From the NCBI GenBank assembly GCA_963828345.1, contig CAWHEZ010000004.1, positions 64,539 to 128,538 on the forward strand: 64,000 nucleotides of DNA, read 5' to 3'. A model generated the notes under the pieces. That model was not told the DNA's origin and searched no databases. It saw only the letters and a program-made list of their open reading frames with translations. The stretch's first letter is position 1. Every line of letters begins with the position of its first letter. Origin of the DNA: an uncultured delta proteobacterium (lineage in GTDB: Bacteria > Desulfobacterota > Desulfobacteria > Desulfobacterales > SpSt-501). The position numbers were made by a program, and so were the translations under genes. Below are positions 1 through 23,581 of the stretch, in pieces.

Positions 1-501
1 CGCGAGACCCTGCCCCTGGTGCGCTGCATGCGGTTGGGGGTCGCGCCGGTTCTCGGGGAGGAACGGGCCCGGTTCTCGCTGCTGTTCGTCGAGGACCTGG
101 CCGATGCCGTTTGCCACCTGCTCGACACCCCGCACTGGCGGCCGGGGCCGTTCGAAATCCACGACGGGCAGGCGGGCGGGTACGGCTGGGGCGACCTGGT
201 CCGGACGGTGGGCCGGATCGTCGGCCGGCGGGTTCATGCCGTGCGCATCCCGGCCCCGCTCCTGCGGGTCGCCGCCCGGGTCAGCCTGGGGGTTGCCCGC
301 CGATGCGGCGGCCTGCCGATGCTCACGCCCGGCAAGGTCCGGGAGCTGACCCACCCCGACTGGGTGTGCGACGACGCCCCGCTGCGCGCGGCGACCGGCT
401 GGCGACCGGCGACACTGCTGGAGCCCGGCATGCGGCGCACGCTCGCGCGGCTGCGCGGCGGGCGCTGGGCGGACGGGCAGCGCGGATCGCGCAACCGTTG
501 A
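1..501 (+). CDS. NAD-dependent epimerase/dehydratase-family (extended SDR) reductase, C-terminal part; the 5' end lies outside the window
   Basis: Frame 1 is open from base 1 to the TGA at 499-501. The C-terminal region (LLFVEDLADAV, LTPGKVRELTHPDW) resembles extended-SDR/NDUFA9-like reductases. It lies directly upstream of ACP and an alpha-oxoamine synthase. Confidence 0.6.
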   Translation, partial: RETLPLVRCMRLGVAPVLGEERARFSLLFVEDLADAVCHLLDTPHWRPGPFEIHDGQAGGYGWGDLVRTVGRIVGRRVHAVRIPAPLLRVAARVSLGVARRCGGLPMLTPGKVRELTHPDWVCDDAPLRAATGWRPATLLEPGMRRTLARLRGGRWADGQRGSRNR

Positions 502-598
502 TTCTTTCGCGCCGTTCGTCTAAAAAGGAAACATCCTGAACGGATACGAGCGTGCCGCTGCCGGCGCGCGTTCATCGCAGATACGTCGAGGACCGGGT

Positions 599-847
599 AT
601 GCAGACATACGAAGAACTCCTGTCGCAGGTGATCGAGATGGTGCAGCCGCTGGCCCCTCAGGGGCGCAGCGTCCGCGAGGACACGGACTTGGTCTCCGAC
701 CTCGAGTTCGACTCCCTCAAGGTCATGAGCCTCGTCGAACGGGTGGAAGACCGGTTCGACATCTCGATCCCGCTCAACATCCTGCCGGACGTCCGCACCG
801 TTCGCGACTTTACCGTGCAGCTCCAGAAACTGTTGGGGAAAGTGTGA
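599..847 (+). CDS. acyl carrier protein
   Basis: 82 aa, acidic, with the phosphopantetheine-attachment motif LEFDSLKVMSL (DSL). Its stop overlaps or abuts the next gene's start. Confidence 0.85.
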   Translation: MQTYEELLSQVIEMVQPLAPQGRSVREDTDLVSDLEFDSLKVMSLVERVEDRFDISIPLNILPDVRTVRDFTVQLQKLLGKV

Positions 848-2052
848 CCATGGCGATTTTCGACAAGTTCCAGCAACTGGCCGCCACGCGCCAGGCCCTG
901 TCCGAAAGCGGGATCCAGGCGATCAGCGTGGTGATGGACCAGGTGGTTTCGGCCACCGAAGCGGTGGTGAACGGGCAGCGCGTCATCCTGGCCGGAACCA
1001 ACAACTACCTCGGGCTCACCTTCCACCCCGACTGCATCGAAGCCGCCTGCCAGGCGGTGCGCACCCAGGGCACCGGGACCACCGGCTCGCGGGCCGCCAA
1101 CGGCAGCTACTCGATCCACGTCCAGCTCGAGCGCGAGCTGGCCGATTTCCTCGGCCGGCGCGGGGTGATCGTCTTTTCGACCGGCTACGTGGCCAATCTC
1201 GGCATGCTGTCCACCCTGGCCGGCCCCGGGGATGTCTTCGTGATCGACGGGGACAGCCACGCCAGCATCTACGACGGGTGCCGCCTGAGCGGGGCGGAGA
1301 TCATCCGCTTCCGGCACAACGACCCGGCCGACCTGGACAAGCGGCTGCGCCGCCTCGGCGACCGGATCGCGAACACCCTCATCGTGGTGGAGGGCATCTA
1401 CAGCATGCTGGGCGACCGGGCGCCCCTGGCCGACATCGCCGCCGTCAAGCGCCGCCACCCGGGCGCGATGCTGGTGGTCGACGAGGCGCACTCGCTCGGG
1501 GTCCTCGGGGAGCACGGCCGGGGCATGGCCGAGGAGGCCGGGGTCGAAGCGGACGTCGACTTCGTCATCGGCACCTTCAGCAAGAGCCTGGGGGCGATCG
1601 GCGGGTACTGCGGCAGCGACCACCCCGAGCTCGACCTCATGCGCTTCGCCAACCGGCCCTACGTCTTCACCGCCTCCCCTTCGCCATCGATCATCGCTTC
1701 CACCCGGACCGCCCTCGCGGTCTTGCGGTCGCGCCCGGAGCTGCGCGATCGACTGTGGGAAAACGCCCGAACCCTCTACGGCCGCCTGCGCGACCTGGGG
1801 TATACTCTCGGCCCGGAGCCGAGCCCGATCATCGCCGTGCGTTTCGCGGAACGCGAGAAGGCCTTCGCGGCCTGGACGGCCCTGATCGAACGCGGGGTCT
1901 ACGTGAACCTCGTGCTGCCGCCCGCATCGCCCGACGGCGGGTCCCTGCTGCGCTGCAGCGTCAGCGCCGGCCACACCCCCGAGCAGATCGAGCACATCGC
2001 GCGGGCGTTCGGCGAGTTGCCGAAACCCATCGCCGGCCTGTCGGGCGCCTGA
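844..2052 (+). CDS. PLP-dependent alpha-oxoamine synthase (serine palmitoyltransferase / Kbl / BioF family)
   Basis: 402 aa. PLP-lysine motif GTFSKSLGAIGGY, plus GTTGSRAANG and DEAHSLGVLG motifs typical of the AOS family. Start is GTG 844 (overlapping the ACP stop) or ATG 850. Confidence 0.9.
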   Translation: MTMAIFDKFQQLAATRQALSESGIQAISVVMDQVVSATEAVVNGQRVILAGTNNYLGLTFHPDCIEAACQAVRTQGTGTTGSRAANGSYSIHVQLERELADFLGRRGVIVFSTGYVANLGMLSTLAGPGDVFVIDGDSHASIYDGCRLSGAEIIRFRHNDPADLDKRLRRLGDRIANTLIVVEGIYSMLGDRAPLADIAAVKRRHPGAMLVVDEAHSLGVLGEHGRGMAEEAGVEADVDFVIGTFSKSLGAIGGYCGSDHPELDLMRFANRPYVFTASPSPSIIASTRTALAVLRSRPELRDRLWENARTLYGRLRDLGYTLGPEPSPIIAVRFAEREKAFAAWTALIERGVYVNLVLPPASPDGGSLLRCSVSAGHTPEQIEHIARAFGELPKPIAGLSGA

Positions 2053-2101
2053 CGGGCTATCACCCTCCGGAGCAGGTTCTGAACGGGAAGCGTCTTCATT
2101 C

Positions 2102-3868
2102 ATGAGGCTTTTCTTTACACTCGCGCGGAAGTATCCGTGGCAGACGATTCTGACCCTGGTCGCTATCCTGTTCGCCGGGATATCCGAAGGCTTCGGCATC
2201 TCATCGCTGCTGCCGCTCCTCAACACGCTCTTTAACCAGGCCTCACAGGACGGCGCCGCCGCGGGTTCCCAACCTGCGTGGAGCCAGACGATAGACCAGA
2301 TTGTAAAGGAGGCCCTGGGGGTAATCGGCCTCGCCCCGAGCGTCGCGATCCTGTTGAGCCTGTTCGTCGCCTGCATCGCTCTCAAATGTCTGCTGGTCTA
2401 CCTGGCCAACAAGCAGATCGGGCTCACGGTGGTGATGATTGCCACCGACATGCGCCTGACCCTGCTCAAGTCCCTCTTCGCCTCCAACTGGGAATATTTC
2501 ATCCGCCAGCCGGTCGGGCAGCTGACCAACGCCGTCGCTACCGAGGCGCATCGCGCCTCAACCGCTTTCAGCTTCGGCGCCAAGATGGCGTCCATGCTGA
2601 TCGAGGCCATGGTCTACACGGTCCTGGCGCTCCTGGTCTCCTGGAAAGCCACGCTGATCGCGCTGGGCGGGGGCGTCTTCATCGTGGTCATCCTGCGGCG
2701 GCTGGTTCGCAAAAACCGACGGGCCGGCGCCAAGCAGACCGTCCACATGCAGTCCTTGATCGCCCAGATGACCGATGTCCTCATTTCGATCAAGCCGTTG
2801 AAAGCCATGGCACGTGAAAAGCAGTCCGACGTGGTGTTGACCGACACCACCCGTCGCCTGAACCGTGCGCTCCAAAAGCAGGTCCTGAGCAAAGCCGCAC
2901 TCGGCTCGTTCCAGGAGCCGCTCACCATGGTGTTCTTGGTTCTTTGCCTCTATATCGCCCTGTCGTATTGGGACCTGTCCCCCACGGCCATCATCGCCAT
3001 GGTCTTCTTCATCGGAAAAACTCTCAAGCAAATCGAAAAAATCCAAAAAGAATACGTGAACCTGGTCGAATACGACAGCGCCTACTGGTCGCTGCTCGAA
3101 AAAATCGAGGGGGCACGGAACGCCCGGGAACTGTTCACCGGGACGCTGCAACCGGTCTTCGCCCGCGAGGTCCGGATCGACGGCGTGAGTTTCGCCTATG
3201 GCGACCGCACGGTGTTGGACGACGTGTCGCTGGTGCTCCCGGCGGGGTCCTTTTCGGCGCTGCTGGGCCCTTCCGGTTCGGGGAAAAGCACTCTCGCAGA
3301 CCTGCTGACAGGGTTGCTTCGCCCACAGAAGGGTGATATCTGGGTCGACGGCGCGCCCCTGTCGCAGATCGATATCGGCAGCTGGCGCGAGATGATCGGA
3401 TACGTGCCGCAGGAAAACCTGCTCATGCACGACACGGTCCTCAACAACGTCACGCTGGGAGAGGCCGCCATCAGCGAAGAGGATGTGGAAACCGCGCTGC
3501 GGGCCGCCGGGGCATGGGATTTTGTCCAGCACATGCCCGAGGGTGTCCGCAGCATCGTCGGGGAACGCGGCAGCATGGTTTCCGGGGGCCAGCGCCAGCG
3601 CATCGCCATAGCGCGCGCATTGGTCAAGCGCCCGAAATTGTTGATCCTGGACGAGGCGACGACAGCGCTCGACCCGAAAACCGAAAGAGAGATCTGCGTG
3701 ACCCTCCAGCAGTTGAAGGGGGGCGTCACCATCCTGGCGGTTTCGCATCAATCGGCGGTCGTGGAATGTGCCGATTGGGCCTACCAGCTGAAGGAAGGCA
3801 AGCTGACTCAGATCAAGGCGCCGACGGGGCCGGTGACTCGGCCTGAATCGCTGAGGACGATTTCCTGA
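2102..3868 (+). CDS. ABC exporter with fused permease and ATPase (MsbA/lipid-flippase-like)
   Basis: 588 aa. Hydrophobic six-TM-like N-terminal half. C-terminal NBD with Walker A GPSGSGKST, signature VSGGQRQRIAIARAL and Walker B LLILDEATTALD. Confidence 0.9.
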   Translation: MRLFFTLARKYPWQTILTLVAILFAGISEGFGISSLLPLLNTLFNQASQDGAAAGSQPAWSQTIDQIVKEALGVIGLAPSVAILLSLFVACIALKCLLVYLANKQIGLTVVMIATDMRLTLLKSLFASNWEYFIRQPVGQLTNAVATEAHRASTAFSFGAKMASMLIEAMVYTVLALLVSWKATLIALGGGVFIVVILRRLVRKNRRAGAKQTVHMQSLIAQMTDVLISIKPLKAMAREKQSDVVLTDTTRRLNRALQKQVLSKAALGSFQEPLTMVFLVLCLYIALSYWDLSPTAIIAMVFFIGKTLKQIEKIQKEYVNLVEYDSAYWSLLEKIEGARNARELFTGTLQPVFAREVRIDGVSFAYGDRTVLDDVSLVLPAGSFSALLGPSGSGKSTLADLLTGLLRPQKGDIWVDGAPLSQIDIGSWREMIGYVPQENLLMHDTVLNNVTLGEAAISEEDVETALRAAGAWDFVQHMPEGVRSIVGERGSMVSGGQRQRIAIARALVKRPKLLILDEATTALDPKTEREICVTLQQLKGGVTILAVSHQSAVVECADWAYQLKEGKLTQIKAPTGPVTRPESLRTIS

Positions 3869-4074
3869 GCGGTCGCCTCTCCGCCCGGGCCTACTCGCCC
3901 GGATGGGACGGTTCGCGCCGCGTGAGCGCTTCAGCGTTTCCCGAGACCGGTCAGGTTCCGGGAGCCGACCGGCGACACCGGCGGCGATCCTGAAGAAATT
4001 CAAACCGCTTGAAAAAAACGACCGCTGCTGCGGTCGCACCACGTTTCACCATTAATTCAATGGGGGGGATAGAC

Positions 4075-5142
4075 ATGCACAGGTTAGTCATTGATCAAAA
4101 GACCATCGACGACACGACCGACTGTTATTCGATTGCGGAGATCGGGCACAACCATCAGGGCAAGGTGAAGACCTGTCTGGAGATGTTCAAGGTGGCCAAG
4201 GAGTGCGGGGCGGACGCGGTGAAGCTGCAGAAGCGCGACAACCGCAGCCTCTACACGGCCGCGGGCTATGCCAAGCCCTACGACAACGAGAACAGCTACG
4301 GGGCCACCTACGGGGAGCACCGCGAGGCGCTGGAGTTCGGGGAGAGCGAGTACCGGGAGCTGAAGGCCTACGCCAAGGAGATCGGGGTGACGATGTTCGC
4401 CACGGCCTTTGATTTCCCGAGCGTGGATTTTCTGGCCAAGCTGGACATGCCGGCCTACAAGGTGGCCTCGGGGGATTTGAAGAACACGCCGCTGCTGGCC
4501 TACATGGCGAAGGTGGGCAAGCCGATCGTCTTGAGCACGGGCGGGGGCACGATGGAGGACGTCAACCGGGCCTACGACACGATCATGCCGATCAACCCGC
4601 AGCTGTGCATCCTGCAGTGCACGGCGGGGTATCCGGCGGCCTTCGAGGAGTTGAACCTGCGGGTGATCACCACCTTCCGCGAGCGGTTTCCGCAGGCGGT
4701 GGTGGGGCTGTCCTCGCACGACAACGGGATTGCGATGGCGCTGGCGGCCTACCTGCTGGGGGCGCGGGTGGTGGAGAAGCACTTCACGCTGAACCACACC
4801 ATGAAGGGCACGGACCACGCCTTTTCGCTGGAGCCGATCGGGTTTCAGAAGATGGTGCGGGACCTCCGGCGGGTGCGCACGGCGCTGGGCGACGGGGTGA
4901 AGCGGGTGTACGACAGCGAGGTGACCCCGATGGTGAAGATGGGCAAGCAGCTGGTGGCGGCGCGGGATCTGCCGGCGGGGCACGCGATCCGGCGCGAGGA
5001 CATCGCCATCAAGTCGCCCGGGGGCGGTCTGCAGCCCTACGAGATCGACAAGGTCATCGGCCGCACCACGCGCGTGGCGCTCAAGGCCGACGACGCCTTC
5101 AGCTTCGAAACCCTCAACGGCGCCGGACCCCTGAAGAAGTAG
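4075..5142 (+). CDS. NeuB-family nonulosonic/sialic acid synthase with C-terminal SAF domain, closest in motif content to animal NANS-type (sugar-9-phosphate) synthases
   Basis: Motifs IAEIGHNHQG, ADAVKLQKR, YGATYGEHREALEF, ILQCTAGYP, LSSHDNG and KGTDHAFSLEP. Preferred start is ATG 4075, preceded by a G-rich RBS at 4062-4069; the ORF track starts at 4009. Confidence 0.9.
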   Translation: MHRLVIDQKTIDDTTDCYSIAEIGHNHQGKVKTCLEMFKVAKECGADAVKLQKRDNRSLYTAAGYAKPYDNENSYGATYGEHREALEFGESEYRELKAYAKEIGVTMFATAFDFPSVDFLAKLDMPAYKVASGDLKNTPLLAYMAKVGKPIVLSTGGGTMEDVNRAYDTIMPINPQLCILQCTAGYPAAFEELNLRVITTFRERFPQAVVGLSSHDNGIAMALAAYLLGARVVEKHFTLNHTMKGTDHAFSLEPIGFQKMVRDLRRVRTALGDGVKRVYDSEVTPMVKMGKQLVAARDLPAGHAIRREDIAIKSPGGGLQPYEIDKVIGRTTRVALKADDAFSFETLNGAGPLKK

Positions 5143-5147
5143 GCCGG

Positions 5148-5957
5148 ATGGACGCCTTCGACCTCAAGGGGGAGATCGCCGTGGTCACCGGCGCCCTGGG
5201 CAAACTGGGACCGGTGTGGGTGGAAACGCTCTTGGACGCGGGGGCGAACGTCCTGGCCATAGACCGTGCCGGGGCCCCACCGTCCAAGGCGTTCACGGAC
5301 CTCAGCGGGCGGTTCGGCCCGGAACGGCTGACCTGCGCCGCAGCGGACGTCTGCAGCCGGCCCGAGCTCGAAACGGCCCTCGCCCGCTGCACCGAGGTCT
5401 TCGGCTCCCCGACCATCCTCGTCAACAACGCCGGGATCGATGCGCCGCCCGCGGCCGACGGCAAAGGGTACCGTCTGGATGAGATCCCGCTGGCGGTGAA
5501 CCTGCGGATCCTCGAGGTGAACGCCGCGGGCCTGTTCCTGGTCTCCCAGGTGTTCGGCGCCGCCATGGCGGCCAACCGCCGAGGCTCCATCATCAACATC
5601 GGCTCCCTCTACGCCAGCGTCTCGCCGGACGCACGGTTTTACGACCACATCCCGTGCGATCCCCCGTTCATCAAGCCGCCGGCCTACGGGGCGTCCAAGG
5701 CGGCCGTCATCAACCTCACGAAATACCTGGCCGCCCATCTGGCGCCGCACGGGGTGCGCGTCAATGCCCTCTCCCCGGGCGGGGTCCTGGGCGGGCAGGA
5801 CGAGGACTTCAAACGCAAGTTCTGCGCGCGAGTCCCCCTCGGCCGCATGGCCACCGCGGAGGACCTGCGCGGCCCGCTCCTGTTTCTATCCTCGCCGGCA
5901 TCCGCTTACGTTACCGGGATCAACCTGAAAGTGGACGGCGGCTTCACCGTCTGGTAA
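5148..5957 (+). CDS. short-chain dehydrogenase/reductase (SDR)
   Basis: ATG at 5148, in frame within track ORF 4605..5957. TGALGKLG cofactor motif, NNAG, and YGASKAA catalytic YxxxK. Confidence 0.9.
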   Translation: MDAFDLKGEIAVVTGALGKLGPVWVETLLDAGANVLAIDRAGAPPSKAFTDLSGRFGPERLTCAAADVCSRPELETALARCTEVFGSPTILVNNAGIDAPPAADGKGYRLDEIPLAVNLRILEVNAAGLFLVSQVFGAAMAANRRGSIINIGSLYASVSPDARFYDHIPCDPPFIKPPAYGASKAAVINLTKYLAAHLAPHGVRVNALSPGGVLGGQDEDFKRKFCARVPLGRMATAEDLRGPLLFLSSPASAYVTGINLKVDGGFTVW

Positions 5958-5961
5958 GAAA

Positions 5962-6002
5962 TTGAAGTCCGCCGGGGCACCCCGGCGGACTTCAATTTTT
6001 TT
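5962..6002 (+). terminator. rho-independent terminator after the SDR gene
   Basis: Near-perfect stem TTGAAGTCCGCCGGGG / CCCGGCGGACTTCAA followed by a T7 run. Confidence 0.7.
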
Positions 6003-6035
6003 CTGAAGGGGGAGACCCAAACGACCTCAACCTCC

Positions 6036-7508
6036 ATGAGCTATCCCGGCATCCCCGGGCTCATACCGAACTGGATCGACGGTCGCGAGTCGGACACATC
6101 GACGGGCGAGACCCTGCCGAAGGTTTCCCCCGTCACCGGCAGAGAGATCTGCCGGTTGGCACGCTCGCGCTCGGCCGACGTCGGGCTGGCGGTCGCTGCC
6201 GCGGCCCGCGCCTTCGGGGACTGGTCCGCGCTCACGCCCGTGCGGCGCGCCGAGCTGCTGCTGGCCGTCGCCCGGGAACTCGAGCGCCGACGCGAGGAGA
6301 TGGCCGCCATCGTGGCCGCCGAAACCGGCATGTCCGTCAAGGCCGCGCTGGCCGAGACCGGCGGGGCGATCGCGCTCGGCGAGTTCATGGCCGGCGAGGG
6401 GCGCCGGCTTTACGGCCGCACGACGACCAGCGCCGTGCCGCACCGGACGACGATGACGGTACGCGAGCCCCTCGGGGTCGCCGGCCTCATCATTGCCGCC
6501 AACACCCCGATCGCCAACGTCGCCTGGAAGGTGTTCCCGGCCCTCGTGTGCGGCAACGCGGCCGTCCTGAAGGCCGCCGAGGACACCCCGGCCACGGCCT
6601 GGTTCTTCGGCCGCATCGCCCATGACGCCGGCCTCCCCTCCGGGGTGCTCAACATCGTCCAGGGGTTGGGCGAAGACGCCGGCGCCCCGCTGGTGGCCGA
6701 CCCGCGCGTGGCCGTGGTCAGCTTCACGGGATCGACCGCCGTCGGCCGCGAAATTGCACGCGTGGCCGGCTCGCGCCTGGCCCGGGTGTCGCTCGAGCTG
6801 GGCGGCAAGAACCCGCTGGTGGTCTGCGACGACGCCGACCTCGACCAGGCGGCCCGCTGGGCGGCCCTCTCGGCCTTCAGCAACGCGGGCCAGCGCTGCG
6901 CGGCCGGCAGCCGCGTCATCGTGTTCGACGCGATCTACGAGCGCTTCCGCGACCGCCTCGTGGCGCTCGCCGAGGGGCTGAGGGTCGGCCCCGCCGACGA
7001 CGACGATTTCGGGCCGGTCATCAACGCGAACCAACTCGCGGGCATGCTGGCCGCCGTCGAGCGCGCGCGCGCCGCAGGGGCGCGGGTCCTGACCGGCGGC
7101 AGGCGCCTCACCGACCCCGCACACGCGGACGGGTTTTACCTGGCGCCGACCCTGCTCGAGAACGTGGCGCCGGACGCCGAGATCTCGACCACCGAGGTCT
7201 TCGGCCCGGTCGCCTGCCTCTACCGCGTCCGCGACTACGCGTCGGCCCTGGCGCTCGCCAACCGCTCCCCGTACGGTCTGACCGCCTGCATCCACACCCG
7301 CAGCATCCACCGCGCGCTCGACTTCACCCGGCGGGTCCAGGCGGGGGTGGTCGTGGTCAACGCGGGGACCTTCGGCAGCGAGCCCCACATGCCCTTCGGC
7401 GGGGTCAAGCAGTCCGGCAACGGCTCCCGCGAACCGGGCACCGAAGCGCTGGATGTCTACTCCAACCTGAAAAACGTGATCATGACCTTCGACCCGGGTC
7501 AAACCTGA
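6036..7508 (+). CDS. NAD(P)-dependent aldehyde dehydrogenase
   Basis: 490 aa. ELGGKNP catalytic Glu motif and FSNAGQRCAAGSR catalytic Cys motif. Confidence 0.9.
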   Translation: MSYPGIPGLIPNWIDGRESDTSTGETLPKVSPVTGREICRLARSRSADVGLAVAAAARAFGDWSALTPVRRAELLLAVARELERRREEMAAIVAAETGMSVKAALAETGGAIALGEFMAGEGRRLYGRTTTSAVPHRTTMTVREPLGVAGLIIAANTPIANVAWKVFPALVCGNAAVLKAAEDTPATAWFFGRIAHDAGLPSGVLNIVQGLGEDAGAPLVADPRVAVVSFTGSTAVGREIARVAGSRLARVSLELGGKNPLVVCDDADLDQAARWAALSAFSNAGQRCAAGSRVIVFDAIYERFRDRLVALAEGLRVGPADDDDFGPVINANQLAGMLAAVERARAAGARVLTGGRRLTDPAHADGFYLAPTLLENVAPDAEISTTEVFGPVACLYRVRDYASALALANRSPYGLTACIHTRSIHRALDFTRRVQAGVVVVNAGTFGSEPHMPFGGVKQSGNGSREPGTEALDVYSNLKNVIMTFDPGQT

Positions 7509-7539
7509 GCGACCGAAATCCTATAACCCCCTGACCTCG

Positions 7540-8304
7540 ATGGACCCCATGAGCTCGACACCTCCCAAGCCGTCTTGCATCGCCCTGATCCCGGCCCGCT
7601 CCGGATCCAAGCGGGTCCCGGACAAGAACATCCGGCCGCTGGCCGGCCACCCGCTGATCGCCTATTCGATCTGCGCCGCGCTCCAGAGCGGCGTGTTCGC
7701 GTCTGTCGTGGTCTCCACCGACTCCGAGGCCTACGCCCGCATCGCCCGGGAGCACGGGGCCGAGGTCCCGTTCATGCGCCCGGCCGAGTTCTCCGGCGAC
7801 ACCTCGCCCGACATCGAGTGGGTCGAGTACACGCTCAAGCGCCTGGCCGAGCAAGGCCGGCGCTACGACTGCTTCAGCATCCTGCGCCCCACCAGCCCGT
7901 TCCGGCTGCCCGAGACGATTCAGCGCGCGTGGACGGAGTTCTGCGCGGAGGAGGGGGTGGATTCGCTGCGGGCGGTCGAGAAGTGCGGCCAGCACCCCGG
8001 CAAGATGTGGGTGATCCGCGGCCGGCGCATGCTGCCCCTGCTGCCGTTCGGACCGGCCGAGCAGCCGTGGCACAGCAGCCAGTACCCTTCCCTGCCGCTC
8101 GTCCACGTCCAGAACGCAAGCCTCGAGATCGCCTGGTCCAGGGTGGTGTTCGAAACGCGTACCATCGCCGGCAACGTGCTCATGCCGTTCCTGACCCGCG
8201 ACGAGGAGGGGTTCGACGTCAACCAGCCTTACGACTGGGCACTGGCCGAGCAGATGGTCGCAACGGGGGCGGCTCGACTGCCGTCCGTCGAAAAAGCCCG
8301 GTAG
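7540..8304 (+). CDS. acylneuraminate cytidylyltransferase family (CMP-nonulosonic/ulosonic acid synthetase)
   Basis: N-terminal IALIPARSGSKRVPDKNIRPLAGHPLIAY, typical of NeuA/CMP-NulO synthetases. 254 aa. Confidence 0.85.
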   Translation: MDPMSSTPPKPSCIALIPARSGSKRVPDKNIRPLAGHPLIAYSICAALQSGVFASVVVSTDSEAYARIAREHGAEVPFMRPAEFSGDTSPDIEWVEYTLKRLAEQGRRYDCFSILRPTSPFRLPETIQRAWTEFCAEEGVDSLRAVEKCGQHPGKMWVIRGRRMLPLLPFGPAEQPWHSSQYPSLPLVHVQNASLEIAWSRVVFETRTIAGNVLMPFLTRDEEGFDVNQPYDWALAEQMVATGAARLPSVEKAR

Positions 8305-8441
8305 GAGTGTCTCGCCGGCGATTCAACCGGGAACGTCTCTTCGGTTGACTCCAGGCGGGATCGGGTTGCCCGGCGGGTGGGACCGCACCCAACCGGTTGA
8401 GTGGGAGACCCGGTGCTTCAGGTGGGGGGAGTCGGGCTGTG

Positions 8442-9383
8442 TCAGCCCGGGACCTCTATCTCGTACCAGTCGTAGGCGATGGATCGCCCGCCGAAGTTCT
8501 CCTTGTAGAGCGCCAGCCCGGCGTTCAGAAAGCGGCCGGACTGCTCGGTCGAAATCCCGAAGTCGAAATACGTCCTGTCCGCATAGACCTCCCGGATGAG
8601 ATGGTCCAGCACCAGATCGGCCGCCCCGAATTCCCGCCCTTCGTCGGTCGACGAGATGTATTGCGCGTGGGCAACCCCGGCATCGGCATAGACGATGACC
8701 CCGGCCAGCATGCCCCCCTCCCGAAACGCGCCGAACAGCCGGATGTTCTCGGGGAAGCGCTCGGCCAGGAGCCGGATCTCGGCCGCGGAGTGAACGGGTT
8801 TGGTGCCGTGGTATTTGCGCAGGACGTACTCCTCGATGGCCATGAACGCTTCGAAGTCGAGGCTGGGCTCCACGCTCACACCCGCCTTCCTGGCCTTGTT
8901 GATGCTCCACTTGCGCCCCTTGGCGTAAGGGAGCGGGTGGCGGATGGCGATGGTGGTGGACAGGTCCCGCCGGATCAGGCGGGCGCCCGTGACGAAAAGG
9001 AGGTACAGGTCCTCCTCCGCGGGCAGCCGGTGGTAGATGTGCGGCACGGGCTTGTAGACCAGCCGGCGCACCCCTCGTTGCCGCAAGTGATCCAGCAGGA
9101 GATCGAACGCGGCGCGCATACCGTCGATCGTCATCCGCTCGTCGGTGACCACCCCGCCGAAGGTCAACCCCCCGTGGGACACCCACTCGTCGCCGACGTG
9201 GTTGGCCGGGAGCACCGCCGCGATTCGGCCGCCCTCAAAAAACAGCAGCGAGCTGTCCGCAAACCGGTCGGCGTGGTAGTCCATGTAGTCTCGGCAGAAC
9301 AGGAACACCCCGTTCTTCGAGCGGCGGACGAACTCGTCCCAGGCGGACCGGTGATCGGGCGTGTAGGGGGTGACCGTCAGCAT
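8442..9383 (-). CDS. GNAT/FemAB-like acyl- or aminoacyl-transferase (glycan-modifying, function uncertain)
   Basis: Start trimmed to MLTVTPYTPDHRSAWDEF (ATG 9383), just after the upstream gene's stop at 9392. Two-lobed GNAT-like sequence of a type common in O-antigen/NulO loci. Confidence 0.55.
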   Translation of the reverse strand: MLTVTPYTPDHRSAWDEFVRRSKNGVFLFCRDYMDYHADRFADSSLLFFEGGRIAAVLPANHVGDEWVSHGGLTFGGVVTDERMTIDGMRAAFDLLLDHLRQRGVRRLVYKPVPHIYHRLPAEEDLYLLFVTGARLIRRDLSTTIAIRHPLPYAKGRKWSINKARKAGVSVEPSLDFEAFMAIEEYVLRKYHGTKPVHSAAEIRLLAERFPENIRLFGAFREGGMLAGVIVYADAGVAHAQYISSTDEGREFGAADLVLDHLIREVYADRTYFDFGISTEQSGRFLNAGLALYKENFGGRSIAYDWYEIEVPG

Positions 9384-9391
9384 GCCCGGCC

Positions 9392-10303
9392 TCACTCCGC
9401 GCCGACGGCATATCCGAAACCGTCTCTGCCCATGTCGTTGCCGTTGTAGAACATGTAGGTCCGGTCTTTGTACGCCAGCAGAGACGGATAACACAACGTC
9501 CGGGAGTCCCACCCGGACTCCGAAAGCTCGATCCCGAGAGCCTCGTCGCGCCTCTGCCAGCGGATTCCGTCGGCTGACTCGGCGTACCCCGGGAAGTAGT
9601 TCCCCAGGGTGTCGCCCTTAGTGAAATACATCGCGTAGCCGCCGTTGCGTTTGTAGACCCGCGGCCGCCCGATCCGGTACTCCGCTCCCGCGACGTCGAT
9701 GCACAGCCGCCCCGGACGGTCGAACCGGATCCCGTCCGCAGACTCCGTATAGTGGATGTTGTATTTCGGATAGGGGACCCCGTTCAGCTCTTGCCAGCCG
9801 CTGCCGCTCGCGTACCACACCTTCCAGAGACCGTCTTCGAACAGGACGGTGTGAATGGCACGGATGAACAGCGAGCCGGCGTCCCGGTCCATGACCGGCG
9901 CCGGGCTGGTCCGCACGAAGGTCTCGCCGCCGTCGCGGCTGACGGCCAGCCCTGAGAAAGCCAGGAACTTGACCTGCTGCACCCGCTGAAAGCCGACGTA
10001 GTACATCCGCAGCGATTCGCCGTCCCGGACCACATCCCCCAGGATGACGCCGTTGTCGTCGAAGGCGCCCGGGACCCCGACGTCGAGGACCGGCCGGGCC
10101 GACACCTTGCGTACGACGGACGGGTTGTCCGCCGCGACGTCGACGTAGCCGATGCGGCTGACCCCCTCGGCGTCCCTGAAGCCGGCGTACACCCGGATCA
10201 CGTCCGGCGTGATCAGGATGGGCGTGGGCGTCAAGGCGGAGTGCCGCGCCCAGGGCGCGAACCCGCCCGGACCGTAAACCAATCCCTGCTTGATCCATTT
10301 CAT
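9392..10303 (-). CDS. hypothetical beta-propeller protein (GH32/43/130-like fold), function unknown
   Basis: 303-aa intact ORF with repeated Gly/Asp-rich blade-like segments (VYAGFRD, MYYVGF, VWYASGSG, MYFTKGD, MFYNGND). Tightly packed between glycan genes. Confidence 0.5.
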   Translation of the reverse strand: MKWIKQGLVYGPGGFAPWARHSALTPTPILITPDVIRVYAGFRDAEGVSRIGYVDVAADNPSVVRKVSARPVLDVGVPGAFDDNGVILGDVVRDGESLRMYYVGFQRVQQVKFLAFSGLAVSRDGGETFVRTSPAPVMDRDAGSLFIRAIHTVLFEDGLWKVWYASGSGWQELNGVPYPKYNIHYTESADGIRFDRPGRLCIDVAGAEYRIGRPRVYKRNGGYAMYFTKGDTLGNYFPGYAESADGIRWQRRDEALGIELSESGWDSRTLCYPSLLAYKDRTYMFYNGNDMGRDGFGYAVGAE

Positions 10304-10307
10304 GCGG

Positions 10308-10983
10308 CTAATCCGTTGGGACCCCGAAGGTCTCGTAACTCGATCTGGCGAGGGCCTTGGCCGGGTTGCCCACGTAGACCTTGCCCGGCTCGGTGTCCCG
10401 GACGACGACCGCCCCGGACCCGATGACGCAGTCCCGTGCGACGCGGATCTTGTCGTTGAAGGTGGCGTTCACGCCGACAAAGCAGGATTCGCCGATGTCG
10501 CAGAACCCGGAGATCACCGCGTGCGAGGCGATGTAGGCGTCTTGCCGGATCCGGGTCTGGTGCCCGACATGGTTCCCGCTCCAGAGAAATGACATTGTCC
10601 TCGACGACGACACCGTGCTGGATGACGTTGTTCTCGAGGATGAAGCAGTTTTCCCCTATGTGCGCCGTGCGCCAGACGAACGCCCGCGAGCTGACGTAGC
10701 TCGCGAATGCATAGCCCCTATCTTTCACCTGCCGGTAGATGCGGGCACGGACGCGATTGAGCTGGGTGTACGAGATGGCCACGAACGCCCGGTAGTCCTG
10801 CGGCGGGAAACGCTGCTCCACCGTTTCCAGGGGCACCACGGGCAGGTCGTAGAGCCGTTCCGTCTTTCTGTACTTCTCTTCGACGGCGAACCCGGCCACC
10901 CGCATGTCCGAGTCGTGCGTGAAGTACTCGCAGGCGAGTTGCGCCGTCTCTCCGTCCCCGATGATGATGAGTTCCTGTGGCAT
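10308..10983 (-). pseudogene. NeuD/PglD-family sugar N/O-acyltransferase (left-handed beta-helix), broken by one frameshift
   Basis: The N-terminal domain MPQELIIIGDGETAQLA...ENNVIQHGVVVEDNVI is in the frame of ORF 10300..11001. The hexapeptide-repeat C-terminus LWSGNHVGHQTRIRQDAYIASHAVISGFCDIGESCFVGVNA is in the frame of ORF 10308..10613. The junction is at an A3/T3 run around 10587-10589. Confidence 0.75.
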
Positions 10984-11047
10984 GGCACCTGCCGATCTCA
11001 AATGAGTGGAAAGATGTAGGTCACGATGAGCCCGGGGCGCCGGGGCT

Positions 11048-12109
11048 TCAATTCTTCATCTTCTTGAACGCCTTGCCTGTGATGGGGTTCCGCCCCAAGA
11101 CGCGCTTGAAGGAATACCTCAGCTCGATCCACGGCCGCCGCGCCAGCGACAGCAGCGCGAGCAGGAGCACGCCGGGATGGTAGCGGTAATACCTCAGGAT
11201 GCGGGCATCGCACATGTGGTCCACGTAATCCAGCGCCTGCTTGAAGGCCATGCGCTTGACGGCGGTGGCGTGCGGGCCCGGCATGTTCGCCCGGTAGAGA
11301 TTGTAAAAGACCACGAACTTGACCTTTTTCTTGGTCCGGATCCACTGCGGGTCGGACCGCGAGTAGGACTCTGCCGGAGTGCCGATCTCGCACACGCAGC
11401 GGGGCGAAACCGCCACGGACCCCACGGCGCTCAGGATGAAAATATATGCGCACACGTTGTCCTCGCCCGAGTTCAGCCGGCGGGCCAGGGGTGCGTTGAC
11501 CATGAAGGGCTCGTCGTACGCCCCCAGCGCCAGGGCCTTCTCGTGGTCCAGCACGATGGCCTGGGTCCAGTCCAGGCCGCCCCTCCGGTAGAGGCGGATG
11601 AACTCGTCCCCCGGCAGCACGTGCCAGTCCTCCTGGGAGCTCAGCGTGTCGGGGATTTCGAGCATCCGTCGGTCGCTGTTTTCAAACACGGAGTTCGCCA
11701 GGCAGAGGTGGCAACCGGGCCGGGAGCCCATCACCTGCACGGCGTCGGCGATGAAGCCGGGGTCGGTGAACCAGTTGTCGTGCGCGAAGGGCACCAGGTA
11801 CTTCCCCCGGGCTTGCCCGACGGTGAAGCGGAAATTGTCCATCACGCCGAGATTGCCGGTCTGGCGGTGGAATCGGATCTGAAACCGGTCGTTCTCGGCT
11901 CCTGCAAATTCGCGGACGACCCCCTCAAGCGGCCGGGGCGAGCAGTCGTCCGAGACGATCACCTCGAGCGGCCGGTACCGCTGCTCGAGCGCGGACTGCA
12001 GCGTTCGCCGCAGATAGTCCGGCTGGTTGTAGGCCGGGATGACGATGCTGACGAGATTTTCCTGGAGGGGCATTCGGCCGTCCTGGGCACGCTGAAATTC
12101 CGGGTGCAT
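11048..12109 (-). CDS. family 2 glycosyltransferase
   Basis: VSIVIPAYNQPDYLRRTLQSALEQ...VIVSDDCS (GT-A DxD region). 353 aa. Confidence 0.85.
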   Translation of the reverse strand: MHPEFQRAQDGRMPLQENLVSIVIPAYNQPDYLRRTLQSALEQRYRPLEVIVSDDCSPRPLEGVVREFAGAENDRFQIRFHRQTGNLGVMDNFRFTVGQARGKYLVPFAHDNWFTDPGFIADAVQVMGSRPGCHLCLANSVFENSDRRMLEIPDTLSSQEDWHVLPGDEFIRLYRRGGLDWTQAIVLDHEKALALGAYDEPFMVNAPLARRLNSGEDNVCAYIFILSAVGSVAVSPRCVCEIGTPAESYSRSDPQWIRTKKKVKFVVFYNLYRANMPGPHATAVKRMAFKQALDYVDHMCDARILRYYRYHPGVLLLALLSLARRPWIELRYSFKRVLGRNPITGKAFKKMKN

Positions 12110-12114
12110 GGGTA

Positions 12115-13219: not shown

Positions 13220-13638
13220 GCCGGGGTCTCCCGCACGCCGCGGATGAAGTCGGGGTAGTGGCGGTAGTAATCCGCTTCGTCGTAGAACTCGGAGGCCAGC
13301 GCGAGGCAGACCGAACCGGAGGAGAAATTGTCGATGTCGCGCCAGATCATGGGCGGGATGTAAAGCCCGTAGTAGGACCGGTTGAGGTGGAACTTGAGCT
13401 TGTTGAAGCCGTCGTCCACCGTGACGTCGAAGCTGCCGGACATGGCGATGAGGAACTGGTGCAGCGCCTTGTGGGCGTGACCGGCCCGCAGCGCTCCGCC
13501 CGGCACGTCGTAGAGGTAATACACGCGCCGGATGTCGAAGGGGATGTGGCGCGAGTTCTCCAGGAACGTGAGGTTGCCGCGCGCGTCGAGGATCTTGGGG
13601 AGGTCGATCAGCTTGCATTTGTCGGAAATCATGCTCAT
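13216..13638 (-). CDS. WxcM/FdtA-like cupin: dTDP-4-keto-6-deoxyhexose 3,4-ketoisomerase
   Basis: 140 aa. LPKILDARGNLTFLE...RVYYLYDVPGGALRAGHAHK motifs typical of FdtA/QdtA. Confidence 0.8.
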   Translation of the reverse strand: MSMISDKCKLIDLPKILDARGNLTFLENSRHIPFDIRRVYYLYDVPGGALRAGHAHKALHQFLIAMSGSFDVTVDDGFNKLKFHLNRSYYGLYIPPMIWRDIDNFSSGSVCLALASEFYDEADYYRHYPDFIRGVRETPA

Positions 13639-13967: not shown

Positions 13968-15371
13968 ATGTCGACCACCCGGCACCTGCTCATACCCGTC
14001 GAAAACCAGGTTCGGGAGCTGGATCCCAAGCTGCTCCTGGCCTGTGTCGCGGCGCGGCGGGGATTCACGTCGGTCATCGGCTCCCGGCGCGAGATGGAGA
14101 TGCTGATCGACTCCTTCCCGCGCAGCATCTACCTCTCCAAGAGCATGACCGTGCGCAGCCTGCTCTTCTTCTGGGTGGCGGCCAAGTACGGGCACGAGAT
14201 CATCACCTGGGACGAGGAGGCCCTCGTCCACCTGCCCCCCGAAACCTACTTCAGCCGCCGCCTGCACCCGGCCGCCATCCGCTACGTCAGCCACCTGTTC
14301 GCCTGGGGGGAGGAAAACGCGGAGCTGTGGCGGCAGTACCCGGAGCTGCCCCGGGGGATCCCCATCCATGTCACCGGCAACCCGCGCAGCGACATGCTGC
14401 GGACGCAGATGCACCCCTACTACGCGGCCGACGTGGCGGCGATCCGCCGGGAGTTCGGCAATTTCATTCTCGTCAACACCAACTTCAACCACGTCAACGC
14501 CTTCGGGGCGGACATGAACCTCTTCAAGCCCGCCCGGCGGCCCGGGGAGCGGCCCCGCTTCGGCCGGGCCGCCCGCGGCATGAGCCGGGAGTACGCGGAG
14601 GGGCTGCGCGACCACAAGCAGGCGGTCATGGCCGACTTCGAGCGCATGATCCCCCTGCTGGAGGACAGCTTCCCGGAGGTCACCGTCGTCGTGCGACCCC
14701 ACCCCACCGAGAGCCACGACGTCTATCGCCGGCTCGCGGAAGGATGCCGCCGGGTGCGGGTGACCAACCAGGGCAACGTCGTGCCCTGGCTCCTGAGCGC
14801 CCGGGCGCTGATCCACAACGGCTGCACCACGGGGGTCGAGGCCTTCGAGCTGGGGGTCCCGGCCCTGAGCTACCGCGCCACGGTCAACGACACCTACGAC
14901 AACGGCTTCTACCGGCTGCCGAACGCGGTCAGCCACAACTGCTTCGGCTTCGACGCGCTGCGACAGACCCTGCGCGGGGTGCTGGACGGCGCGGTCACGG
15001 CGCCCGACACCGAGGAGCGCCGCCGGCTCGTCCGCCATCACCTCGCCGCCCAGGACGGCCCGCTCGCCTGCGAGCGCATTCTCGACGTCCTCGAGGGTGT
15101 CGCGACCGGGGCGCCCCGTTCCCGGTCCCTGCTCGGGCGCCTGGACGGCTGGGTCACTTCCAAGGGTCTGCACGCCCTGCGGCAGATCAAGTCCGTGCTG
15201 CCCGGCTCCCACAACCGGCCGGAGTTCCAGCGCCACCGCTACCCGGGCATGCCGCTCGAGGAAGTGGCCGAGCGCCTGGCGCGCTTCCAGAAGCTGCTGG
15301 GGGACACGACCCCGCTGGCGGTCGAGCCGGTCACGGCCACCATCTACCGCGTGCGGGCGGCAAGGGCCTGA
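13968..15371 (+). CDS. uncharacterised surface-carbohydrate biosynthesis protein, paralogue 1 (putative GT-B-like transferase)
   Basis: Start at MSTTRHLLIPVENQVRELDPK (ATG 13968). About 60% identical by eye to the next gene. Conserved blocks TWDEEALVHLPP, HVTGNPR, LVNTNFNHVNAF, VVVRPHPTE and HNGCTTGVEAF. Confidence 0.6.
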   Translation: MSTTRHLLIPVENQVRELDPKLLLACVAARRGFTSVIGSRREMEMLIDSFPRSIYLSKSMTVRSLLFFWVAAKYGHEIITWDEEALVHLPPETYFSRRLHPAAIRYVSHLFAWGEENAELWRQYPELPRGIPIHVTGNPRSDMLRTQMHPYYAADVAAIRREFGNFILVNTNFNHVNAFGADMNLFKPARRPGERPRFGRAARGMSREYAEGLRDHKQAVMADFERMIPLLEDSFPEVTVVVRPHPTESHDVYRRLAEGCRRVRVTNQGNVVPWLLSARALIHNGCTTGVEAFELGVPALSYRATVNDTYDNGFYRLPNAVSHNCFGFDALRQTLRGVLDGAVTAPDTEERRRLVRHHLAAQDGPLACERILDVLEGVATGAPRSRSLLGRLDGWVTSKGLHALRQIKSVLPGSHNRPEFQRHRYPGMPLEEVAERLARFQKLLGDTTPLAVEPVTATIYRVRAARA

Positions 15372-15381
15372 GGGCGCAGCC

Positions 15382-16791
15382 ATGTCCCGTCCACCGCTGA
15401 TCATCCCGGTCGAAAACCAGGTGCGCGAGCTCGACCCGAAGCTGCTGCTGGCGGCCGTCGCCGCGCGCCGGGGCTTCACCTCCATCCTCGGCTCGCACCG
15501 CGAGGTCGACTTCCGCATCGCCGCCTTCCCGCGCGGGCTCTACCTCAACAAGAGCTTCACCGACCGCAACCTGAAGATGTTCCAGATCATGCGCCGGCTC
15601 GGGCACCTCATCCTGACCTGGGACGAGGAGGCGCTCGTCCACCTGCCGCCGGCGATCTACTACTCGCGGCGGCTCTCCCCCACGGCCATCCGCTGCGTGT
15701 CCCATCTCTTCGCCTGGGGCGAGGACAACGCCGAGCTGTGGCGGCGCTACCCCGAGTTCCCCGCCGGGCTGCCGATCCACGTCACCGGCAACCCGCGCAA
15801 CGACCTGCTCCGGCCGGAGCTGCACCCGTTTTACGCGGACCAGGTGCGGGCCATCCGCGAGCGCTACGGCGACTTCCTGCTGGTCAACACCAACTTCAAC
15901 CACGTGAACGCCTTCTTCCCGGCCCAGAACCTGTTCCGGCCGGCGCAGACCCCCGGGGAGCCGCCCGTCTTCGGCAAGGCGGGCGTGGGCATGACGCGCG
16001 AATTCGCCGAGGCCCTGCGCGACCAGAAGCAGGCCGTGTTCGAGGCCTTCCTGCGCCTGATCCCGGAGCTCGCGCGCGCCTTCCCGCAGCTGGCCGTCGT
16101 CGTGCGGCCGCACCCGACCGAAGGGCAGGAGGTCTACAAGGGGCTCGCGGCCGGCAACGGCCGGATCCACGTCACCAACGAGGGCAACGTGGTCCCGTGG
16201 CTCATGGCGGCCCGGGCGCTGGTGCACAACGGCTGCACGACCGGGGTGGAGGCCTTCGTCATGCGCACCCCGGCCTTCAGCTACCGGCCCTCGATCTGCC
16301 CGGCGATCGACGACAGCTTTTACGTGCTGCCGCACGGCCTGAGCCACCAGTGCGTCACCGCCGCGGAACTGCTCGACCGGATCCGCGCGGTGCTGGACGG
16401 GCGGCTCGGCGCCGCCGGCGGCGACGCGCGCTCGGCGCTCGTCCACCGCTACCTGACCGGCCAGGACGGGGCGCTCGCCTGCGAGCGCATGGTGGACGTC
16501 CTCGAGACGATCGTGCAGGAGCGGCCCGGGCTGCCGGCCCCGCCGCTTCCGACCCGCGTCCTCGGCCGCCTGTTCGCCGAAGGCCGGTTCCTCGTGAAGC
16601 GGCTGAAAGCCTATTACCCCGGGTCCCACGCGCCCCCCGAGTTCCACCGGCACCGCTACCCGGACGTCACCGGGGAGGAGATGCTGCGGCGCATCCGACG
16701 CTTTCAGGACATCCTGGGGGACGATACCCCGATTCGCGTAGAGCCGATCGCCCCGCGCATCTTCCGCATCGCGCCCGAAGGCCGCCCGTAA
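15382..16791 (+). CDS. uncharacterised surface-carbohydrate biosynthesis protein, paralogue 2
   Basis: Start at MSRPPLIIPVENQVRELDPK (ATG 15382), 10 nt after paralogue 1. Carries the same conserved blocks. Confidence 0.6.
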   Translation: MSRPPLIIPVENQVRELDPKLLLAAVAARRGFTSILGSHREVDFRIAAFPRGLYLNKSFTDRNLKMFQIMRRLGHLILTWDEEALVHLPPAIYYSRRLSPTAIRCVSHLFAWGEDNAELWRRYPEFPAGLPIHVTGNPRNDLLRPELHPFYADQVRAIRERYGDFLLVNTNFNHVNAFFPAQNLFRPAQTPGEPPVFGKAGVGMTREFAEALRDQKQAVFEAFLRLIPELARAFPQLAVVVRPHPTEGQEVYKGLAAGNGRIHVTNEGNVVPWLMAARALVHNGCTTGVEAFVMRTPAFSYRPSICPAIDDSFYVLPHGLSHQCVTAAELLDRIRAVLDGRLGAAGGDARSALVHRYLTGQDGALACERMVDVLETIVQERPGLPAPPLPTRVLGRLFAEGRFLVKRLKAYYPGSHAPPEFHRHRYPDVTGEEMLRRIRRFQDILGDDTPIRVEPIAPRIFRIAPEGRP

Positions 16792-16892: not shown

Positions 16893-17753
16893 ATGAAAGT
16901 CTTGATCCTGGGGTTGGGGAAATCCGGCACCACCGGCATGGTGTACAAGGTTGCGGGCGGGCTCCCGAACTGCCACGCATTTTCGGGCGGCAAGCCCGGC
17001 AAGTACAGCGGCGACTACGAAAACGCAGTCTACAAGCACACCTACGAAGAGCGCAAGGGCAAGAACTTCGAGGTCTACCGCAAGCACTTCGCCCGGTTTC
17101 AATACGACCGCAAGGTGTGGATGGCGCGCGACCCCCGGGACGCCGCCGTGAGCCGCATCCTCTACCGCTTCCACAAGGGGCTGCTGTTCAACCGCAAGCA
17201 GTACGAGGCCTACTTCGATCTCATCCTGAAAAAGGAGCAGAACCCCCGGGCGGTCCCGTTCATCGAGATCTGCCGCTACGCCAGCCACCTGGATTGGCCG
17301 GTCAGCCGTGAGAAGGTGATCGAGGAAGAGCGGGTGCGCTACAGCCGCATGCGGGATTTCGTGAAGGGCCTCGGCGAGGGGTGGTACCTCTTCAAGTACG
17401 AGGACATGGTCACCGGGCAATTCACGGACATCAACCGGTACCTGGGGTTCGAGCTGAAGTCCGAGGCCGAGGTGCCCAAGGGCACCGGCAAGGACAAGGT
17501 GGTGCGCAAGAAGGCCTTCGGGGACTGGCGCCACTGGTTCACCGAGGAGGACGTGGCGCTGTTCAAACCGGCCTACCTGCCCTACATGGAGGCGATCGGC
17601 TACGACTGCGAGGACTGGGCCCCGGCGGCCGATCCCGTGATCGAGCCGCAGTTCTCGTCGGTCTACGTCAAGAACCTGGCGAGCAAGGGCCACTCCAACG
17701 TCATCAAGCGGTTCTACGACAACCTCATGCAGCGCTACTACGCGCGGACCTGA
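16893..17753 (+). CDS. sulfotransferase-family protein
   Basis: N-terminal GLGKSGTTG resembles the PAPS 5'-phosphosulfate-binding loop and ARDPRDAAVS resembles the 3'-phosphate-binding motif. 286 aa. Confidence 0.7.
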   Translation: MKVLILGLGKSGTTGMVYKVAGGLPNCHAFSGGKPGKYSGDYENAVYKHTYEERKGKNFEVYRKHFARFQYDRKVWMARDPRDAAVSRILYRFHKGLLFNRKQYEAYFDLILKKEQNPRAVPFIEICRYASHLDWPVSREKVIEEERVRYSRMRDFVKGLGEGWYLFKYEDMVTGQFTDINRYLGFELKSEAEVPKGTGKDKVVRKKAFGDWRHWFTEEDVALFKPAYLPYMEAIGYDCEDWAPAADPVIEPQFSSVYVKNLASKGHSNVIKRFYDNLMQRYYART

Positions 17754-23529: not shown

Positions 23530-23581
23530 GCCCGCGCGATGAGCGCAACCAGCTATCAAACCTAAAACCGAACCACTCTTT

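Follow-up and report, generated by a model that had tools for sequence, protein, structure and literature searches.

Which lipid pathway, if any, do the first three genes of this Desulfobacterales contig belong to? The stretch analysed here (the window) comprises 64,000 nucleotides from an uncultured delta proteobacterium (contig CAWHEZ010000004.1, assembly GCA_963828345.1), and its first 2052 positions carry genes for a reductase, an ACP (acyl carrier protein) and an alpha-oxoamine synthase (AOS). An initial annotation, made from the sequence without database searches, had proposed a sphingolipid-type module. It was found that positions 1-2052 are very probably the 3′ portion of an operon, aasR-cerR-acpR-spt, whose products would make the sphingoid backbone of ceramide. 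This conclusion rests on gene identities, orthology, conserved residues and synteny, from which we infer the substrates, the reaction order and the final lipid.

All three genes lie on the + strand where they had been placed. The first (1..501) encodes the 3′ half of a cerR-like, NAD(P)-dependent reductase of the epimerase/dehydratase family, predicted to be the ceramide or 3-keto reductase. Its reading frame (frame 1) is open from base 1, where it runs off the 5′ edge, to a TGA at 499-501, and 166 of its 328 codons are inside the window, consistent with the proposed truncation by the window edge. The second (599..847) encodes an acpR-like dedicated ACP of 82 amino acids (aa) with the phosphopantetheine-accepting Ser39 in a DSL motif (PP-binding, 4e-9). 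The third (844..2052) encodes the AOS, annotated here as spt, serine palmitoyltransferase, a protein of the class I/II aminotransferase fold (Pfam Aminotran_1_2, E 8e-55). The E-values of the domain matches in the trio are far beyond chance. The stop codon of the ACP gene (TGA, 845-847) overlaps a GTG start of the synthase gene at 844 by 4 nt and is separated from an ATG at 850 by 2 nt. The ATG, which is the start chosen by gene calls on related contigs and gives a product of 400 aa, is the more likely of the two, and a purine-rich run, GGGGAAAG, is located just 5′ of the spt start. Since both candidate starts abut the ACP stop, the tight coupling of acpR and spt holds with either, as does the translational coupling claimed for the pair. 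A promoter and terminator scan of window positions 1-9000 performed no better than on shuffled sequence.

The class of the synthase was assigned from curated NCBIfam hidden Markov model (HMM) cutoffs and ranked PDB scores. Only the serine palmitoyltransferase model NF047599 (SerpalmtaseBetaP) was passed, with 631 bits against a cutoff of 500; the models for bioF (326 bits, cutoff 426), Kbl (310, cutoff 460), ALAS (232, cutoff 339) and CqsA-type enzymes (202, cutoff 428) all failed. The PDB ranking agrees, with the highest scores for the serine palmitoyltransferases (SPTs) of Sphingomonas wittichii (2x8u, 445 bits) and S. paucimobilis (2jg2, 431 bits), followed by Bacteroidetes-type SPT (281 bits), KBL (224 bits), cysteate acyltransferase (178 bits) and BioF (165 bits). 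Both results bear out the view that the AOS is Spt-like rather than a BioF or Kbl. Although all of these enzymes form one superfamily and match the same Pfam domain, an ordinary BioF, Kbl, ALAS or CqsA with an ACP and a reductase as unrelated neighbours is effectively refuted, with a negligible probability, by the equivalog cutoffs and by a cerR-acpR-spt order kept across at least 60 loci from several classes, and no bio, tdh or quorum-sensing genes are nearby.

The window Spt is 54% identical to the experimentally validated Spt of Escherichia coli BL21. Its His139, Asp213, His216, Lys247 and Arg370 align with H159, D231, H234, K265 and R390 of the S. paucimobilis enzyme; the two Sphingomonas SPTs, whose ACP gene is likewise adjacent, are the best structural relatives and have in common with the window Spt the fold, the lysine that binds pyridoxal 5′-phosphate (PLP), the histidines, the aspartate and the R390 equivalent. 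A difference is found at S. paucimobilis R378, which corresponds to Leu358 in the window Spt. Loss of this arginine was considered as an argument against Spt activity and rejected, as essentially all 87 homologues, the active E. coli BL21 Spt included, have a hydrophobic residue there, in most cases leucine; R378 is a Sphingomonas peculiarity and Leu358 is no defect. The predicted product of the window Spt is a serine-derived long-chain base. Short contigs binned as Gemmatimonadota, Hyphomicrobiales and Chloroflexota (L019, L021 and L027) encode Spt proteins 70-84% identical to that of the window; mis-binning is the likely explanation for these, and horizontal transfer a possible one.

An exact-sequence look-up of the window Spt, with either start codon, returned no record, whereas the same look-up with the ACP found same-species metagenome contigs, from which the upstream part of the locus was read. 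These contigs are 98-99% identical to window positions 1-10,850, and window base 1 corresponds to position 9403 of one of them (L083). The CerR fragment is identical in 166/166 residues to the C-terminus of a 328-aa protein on this contig (8917-9903), which has a GATGFVGS Rossmann motif and a Y-x3-K motif and is 43% identical to E. coli BL21 CerR (222 bits). The fragment by itself scored 70.5 bits (E 9e-21) against the same E. coli protein and had zero Pfam or NCBIfam matches; a full-length homologue in one of the closest genome loci (L001) matches Pfam Epimerase (5e-28). An orthologue of E. coli CerR and Caulobacter CC_1164, belonging to the extended short-chain dehydrogenase/reductase (SDR)/epimerase family, is accordingly located between aasR and acpR. 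The window ACP is 46% identical to E. coli BL21 AcpR (61 bits), and the NCBIfam models for housekeeping ACPs were all far under cutoff (best 38 bits against 84; cutoffs of at least 65). Its score of 31 bits against an AcpP sequence is a lead only. The gene encodes a small DSL-containing ACP distinct from the housekeeping AcpP, lies directly 5′ of spt and has a cognate aasR gene nearby.

The acyl-ACP synthetase that was looked for upstream is present in the form of a fatty acyl-AMP ligase of the AasR type. On the same-species contigs, this is a 590-aa AMP-binding protein encoded directly 5′ of cerR, with 47% identity to E. coli AasR; on the fatty acyl-AMP ligase model NF006624, its L001 orthologue reaches 783 bits. 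Reading further upstream, the next genes encode a MobA-like NTP transferase (NTP_transf_3) and paralogues of LptF and LptG, all three on the strand opposite to aasR-spt, then a calcineurin-like phosphoesterase (Metallophos) on the + strand, and then, again on the opposite strand, a DAGK_cat lipid kinase and a Tam41-like protein of 316 aa, which is 62% identical to an L174 protein with a Pfam Tam41_Mmp37 match. The whole set, with the LptF and LptG paralogues denoted LptF2 and LptG2, is located within 10 kb upstream. A biotin or threonine-catabolic context is thus absent; the AasR-type ligase and Caulobacter-type decoration and transport genes are there instead. The order aasR-cerR-acpR-spt is kept in most of 86 loci, and the closest relatives are labelled Desulfobacterales.

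For the comparison with the CHARACTERISED loci, the E. coli BL21(DE3) cluster was fetched and the Caulobacter families were taken from PMC11324152 S1 Text. The E. coli cluster is annotated as yghO, fatty acyl-AMP ligase, epimerase-family protein, ACP, spt, lptG and lptF. In Caulobacter and E. coli B, the ligase AasR loads the ACP (AcpR), acyl-AcpR is the preferred substrate of Spt, the epimerase-family gene encodes the reductase and yghO the N-acyltransferase, as experiments have demonstrated (Padilla-Gomez et al., PMC9386255). The window species shares with E. coli B/BL21(DE3) (ECD_02850-02854) the order aasR-cerR-acpR-spt, with identities of 47, 43, 46 and 54%, as well as the abutting acpR and spt genes and the paralogous lptF/lptG alongside. 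The two differ in that the YghO N-acyltransferase encoded immediately upstream in E. coli has no counterpart nearby in the window species, in that E. coli has a Wzx-like 'lipopolysaccharide biosynthesis protein' where the window has an ATP-binding cassette (ABC) exporter, and in that the E. coli cluster is without the NeuB/SDR/aldehyde dehydrogenase (ALDH)/CMP-transferase module that follows spt in the window.

The order cerR-acpR-spt is also that of Caulobacter CC_1164-CC_1162 (PMC11324152, PMC9386255). The larger ceramide/ceramide-(di)phosphoglycerate locus of Caulobacter crescentus, CC_1152-CC_1168, has AasR, CerR, AcpR, Spt, LptF2 and LptG2 in common with the window species, together with the DAGK_cat ceramide kinase CpgB (CC_1160), the Tam41-like CpgC, the Metallophos protein CC_1158 and the MobA/CofC-like CC_1153. 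Indeed, the divergent upstream families are those reported for Caulobacter CC_1152-CC_1161 plus LptF2/G2 (Olea-Ozuna et al., PMC11324152 S1 Text), and a 2026 preprint has implicated LptF2/G2 in sphingolipid transport. The window locus differs from the Caulobacter locus in that no CpgA, LptC2, Wzx-type flippase or bacterial ceramide synthase (bCerS) was detected near it, in having in addition the ABC exporter, a CMP-ulosonic acid pathway, tandem GT-B proteins and a sulfotransferase, and in its host, which belongs to an anaerobe-type Desulfobacterales lineage rather than to the alpha-, beta- or gammaproteobacteria. In Sphingomonadaceae, aasR is located far from acpR-spt (PMC9386255). The proposed match to the Caulobacter neighbourhood therefore extends beyond the shared order to the decoration and transport families of CC_1152-CC_1161, and the sphingolipid-type reading of the trio is supported by the HMM cutoffs, the PDB ranking, the E. 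coli and Caulobacter gene order and the upstream genes. By its gene content, the operon is of the AasR/AcpR-dependent type, as in Caulobacter and E. coli B.

In the predicted pathway, AasR, encoded just off the window edge, would adenylate a free fatty acid and load it onto the dedicated carrier AcpR. The PLP enzyme Spt would then join acyl-AcpR and L-serine with decarboxylation to give 3-ketosphinganine, the second chain would come from an N-acyltransferase not encoded nearby in this species, and CerR would thereafter reduce the 3-keto group. The lipid kinase, the Tam41-like enzyme and the nucleotidyltransferases are candidates for building an anionic head group, and LptF2/LptG2 may extract the lipid toward the outer membrane, with the ABC exporter as a hypothetical flippase. 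The neighbouring conserved genes would thus probably decorate and export the lipid.

Several points weigh against a ceramide operon. The first is the missing ACYLTRANSFERASE: no bCerS (a YghO/CC_1154-type GNAT) was found in the 64-kb window or in the 9.4 kb upstream of it in this species, where such an acyltransferase had been expected, in phmmer and tblastn searches whose queries were E. coli YghO plus a pair of bCerS proteins of Desulfobacterales type (P0193 and that of L167). These queries also matched nothing in the same-species contigs L081-L085 or in the closest genome loci, L001-L021. Because no bCerS gene was found nearby, ceramide is not a secure assignment, and the product may instead be a long-chain base that is free or acylated in some other way. 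Likewise, the genes called between -10 kb and about +21 kb had no Pfam tags for a CpgA-type CDP-alcohol phosphatidyltransferase (PF01066) or LptC2, nor for a Wzx-like flippase. The organism is known from metagenome contigs alone. Finally, the amino-acid specificity of Spt is not readable from sequence, and 1-deoxy- and sulfono-ceramides have been linked to Desulfobacterota (PMC11334938).

A bCerS gene was found in the relatives L022-L026, L137, L142, L167 and L174. In L174, whose Spt is 75% identical and whose overall architecture is alike, it is located between the NTP transferase gene and aasR, and in L167 and L022-L026 it adjoins aasR. The gap between the NTP transferase gene and aasR in the window species is 523 nt (L083 6522-7043) with no bCerS remnant, and the closed Desulfobacterales genome CP070746 (L013) has a 37-residue bCerS remnant at 6181-6291, between the same two genes. 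Some members of the clade have thus lost or relocated the gene, and the remnant, together with the gap in the window species, points to repeated loss or relocation. A FemAB-like PF13480 protein encoded at 8442-9512 (-) was tried as a candidate bCerS and was rejected as the core ceramide synthase because it has no detectable similarity to YghO, occurs at few loci and belongs to a variable sugar block; it is common only to L012, L084 and the same-species contigs L081-L083.

The specificity of the synthase also bears on whether the ACP-synthase pair makes a non-serine amino-lipid, either a 1-deoxysphingoid from alanine or a capnine/sulfonolipid from cysteate, which would leave the locus only sphingolipid-like. 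Membership of the synthase family does not predict substrate choice, the extended cluster has a conserved sulfotransferase gene, and 1-deoxy- and sulfono-1-deoxyceramides in the Black Sea have tentatively been attributed to Desulfobacterota by metalipidomics (PMC11334938). We consider this alternative unlikely, however, as the window Spt scores 445 bits against SPT but only 178 against the cysteate acyltransferase of known structure, and as the sulfotransferase would yield O-sulfate esters rather than C-S sulfonates. In addition, a DAGK_cat kinase of the ceramide-kinase type (as CC_1160), which needs the serine-derived C1 hydroxyl, is kept in the divergent operon.

With a ceramide-type backbone as the preferred reading, the next question is what the genes after spt contribute. 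Five genes follow on the + strand. The first (2102..3868) encodes a fused ABC exporter (ABC_membrane + ABC_tran by Pfam) with about six transmembrane segments. It is followed by genes for a NeuB-family ulosonic acid synthase (4075..5142; Pfam NeuB 1e-79), which condenses phosphoenolpyruvate (PEP) and carries a SAF domain, an SDR (5148..5957; adh_short_C2 9e-39) whose position after the NeuB gene is conserved in synteny, an ALDH (6036..7508; Aldedh 1e-151, with no NCBIfam equivalog cutoff reached) and a CTP_transf_3 cytidylyltransferase of the CMP-ulosonic acid synthetase type (7540..8304; PF02348 5e-23). None of the five reached an equivalog cutoff for NeuB, PseI, PseF, KdsB or MsbA. The NeuB-like synthase scored 296 bits against a cutoff of 400 for NeuB (NeuB_NnaB) and 237 against 340 for PseI, which makes it a member of the Pfam family only; its best PDB match is PseI, with 153 bits. 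The cytidylyltransferase scored 136 bits on the PseF model, under the cutoff of 206, and the exporter was under cutoff for both the MsbA and HepA NCBIfam models. The same-species contigs in ENA (L081-L085, L170 and L171) contain many frameshifts that split the gene calls for the ABC exporter, SDR, ALDH and kinase, a pattern typical of uncorrected long-read assemblies; the ABC, SDR and ALDH genes are intact in the window sequence.

The ABC exporter gene adjoins spt in about 45 of 80 genome loci, from Desulfobacterales and Gammaproteobacteria, and in some of the gammaproteobacterial loci it stands beside spt without the NeuB module. A bacterial sphingolipid flippase is still to be identified (PMC11087976). 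The exporter, linked to spt in many taxa, is therefore a concrete candidate for this flippase. About 20 genome loci labelled Desulfobacterales have the full order spt-ABC-NeuB-SDR-ALDH-CTP_transf_3, as do L024, L025 and one Ectothiorhodospiraceae locus. In relatives, a gene for a KdsC-family phosphatase precedes the NeuB gene (113 bits, cutoff 107), and a transketolase-like gene follows the cytidylyltransferase gene.

Beyond the five genes, three more on the + strand complete the extended cluster. Two encode paralogues of TIGR04396, 'surface carbohydrate biosynthesis protein', that are putative CMP-sugar-acid transferases of the GT-B type (13968..15371, 352 bits; 15382..16791, 348 bits; cutoff 125) and are 56% identical to each other. 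The third encodes a sulfotransferase-domain protein (16893..17753; Sulfotransfer_1 6e-7). The TIGR04396 paralogues have no Pfam domain and, since a PDB sequence search also found no match, a structure prediction was needed. The AlphaFold (AF2) model of the first paralogue (pLDDT 85, pTM 0.88) has a GT-B fold, and Foldseek placed UDP-GlcNAc 2-epimerases and the CDP-glycerol-using polymerase TagF closest to it (TM 0.5-0.6). The two proteins are putative transferases but may be epimerases. The pair is conserved with the spt-NeuB unit in many loci and occurs in tandem in L102, L103, L131, L155, L175 and L176. Homologues of the sulfotransferase (62-65% identity) were found at the same place in at least seven other metagenome loci (L122, L124, L127, L128, L131, L150 and L155), and the presence of this gene after the TIGR04396 pair suggests an O-sulfated product.

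Combining these genes, it is possible, though on balance doubtful, that the Spt module is the lipid-anchor half of a conserved unit of about 17-20 kb making a lipopolysaccharide (LPS)-like, strongly anionic glycosphingolipid. Under this proposal, ceramide or ceramide phosphate would be glycosylated by the tandem GT-B TIGR04396 proteins, and the donor would be a CMP-activated 3-deoxy-ulosonic acid whose synthesis would fall to the NeuB-like enzyme, the cytidylyltransferase and a phosphatase resembling KdsC. Oxidation of the sugar's terminal alcohol to a second carboxylate by the SDR and ALDH may yield an 'ulosaric' acid with two carboxyl groups, and the product may also carry O-sulfate. The dedicated MsbA-like ABC exporter would flip the glycosphingolipid, and LptF2G2 would pass it to the outer membrane.

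The proposed system resembles the activation of Kdo, Kdn and sialic acid, which uses a KdsA/NeuB-type synthase, a KdsC-type phosphatase and a CMP-synthetase: the window shares the NeuB-family synthase and the CTP_transf_3 protein, and its relatives have the KdsC-family phosphatase. It likewise resembles the export of Kdo2-lipid A by MsbA and LptB2FG, in that an MsbA-like exporter and LptFG paralogues flank the module. It differs from the Kdo system in its additional SDR, ALDH and, in relatives, transketolase, and from Kdo2-lipid A in the proposed acceptor, a sphingolipid in place of lipid A. Bacterial ulosonic-acid sphingolipids were searched for in the literature, with no relevant result.

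The alternative that survives best, with a probability only a little short of even, is that the Spt module has the NeuB/SDR/ALDH/CMP-transferase genes only as neighbours and that the sugar acid serves LPS, capsule or protein glycosylation. The description attached to TIGR04396 proteins is a generic one, that of surface carbohydrate proteins, and the parts are separated in the window by a minus-strand block (8442-13638) inserted between the cytidylyltransferase gene and the GT-B pair. This block encodes FdtA, a DegT aminotransferase, a hexapeptide transferase, a GT2 protein, a GH130-like protein and the FemAB-like protein, a content of the type serving a dTDP-3-amino-3,6-dideoxyhexose-type sugar, and it is variable, being shared only partly with L010, L012 and L102/L103. 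In L175, a second and separate cluster of NeuB, CTP_transf_3, Capsule_synth (KpsC/S-like) and methyltransferase genes (1-9800) is located before the TIGR04396 pair, so the GT-B pair can adjoin a different nonulosonic-acid pathway. The association is also mainly within one broad clade, so that shared ancestry of gene order contributes to it. Against mere adjacency, the linkage was tested in reverse by scanning metagenome contigs with the NeuB-like protein and counting the loci with enough upstream sequence: spt was present in 30/30 and an ABC gene on the same strand in 36/37. The spt-NeuB linkage also persists despite insertions (L013, L024 and L025) and occurs in the gammaproteobacterial locus L043, and in L025 all genes from bCerS to TIGR04396 are on one strand with short gaps.

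The cerR-acpR-spt trio itself is a further instance of the known bacterial ceramide pathway, and Spt-like genes in Desulfobacterota have already been reported from Black Sea metagenomes (PMC11334938). The AasR/AcpR-dependent type has been termed 'rhodobacterial', being that of alpha-, beta- and gammaproteobacteria, and the Bacteroidetes/myxobacterial type of Spt has been described for other former delta-proteobacteria (PMC9386255). Less expected are the 'rhodobacterial' type in a Desulfobacterales lineage and a dedicated ABC exporter found with spt in several classes. It is the coupled sugar-acid module, not the core trio, that forms the novel lead: the invariable coupling of spt to genes for a CMP-ulosonic acid pathway, a sulfotransferase and two GT-B proteins hints at an acidic glycosphingolipid not yet described, which, if the proposal is true, would give sediment Desulfobacterales a sphingolipid-based equivalent of Kdo2-lipid A.

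Two further genes were observed downstream of the cluster. NeuB-type enzymes use up PEP, and an 862-aa protein resembling PEP synthase or pyruvate phosphate dikinase is encoded at about 18754-21342 (-) and has conserved counterparts beside the cluster in both L175 and L176. A mutant of PEP synthase in Caulobacter was cofit with the cpg genes (PMC11324152 S1 Text). At about 23572-24420 (-), just before a gene for a class A penicillin-binding protein, precomputed tags on same-species contigs place a gene for an LpxL-type lipid A acyltransferase (PF03279), which suggests that the organism also makes lipid A.

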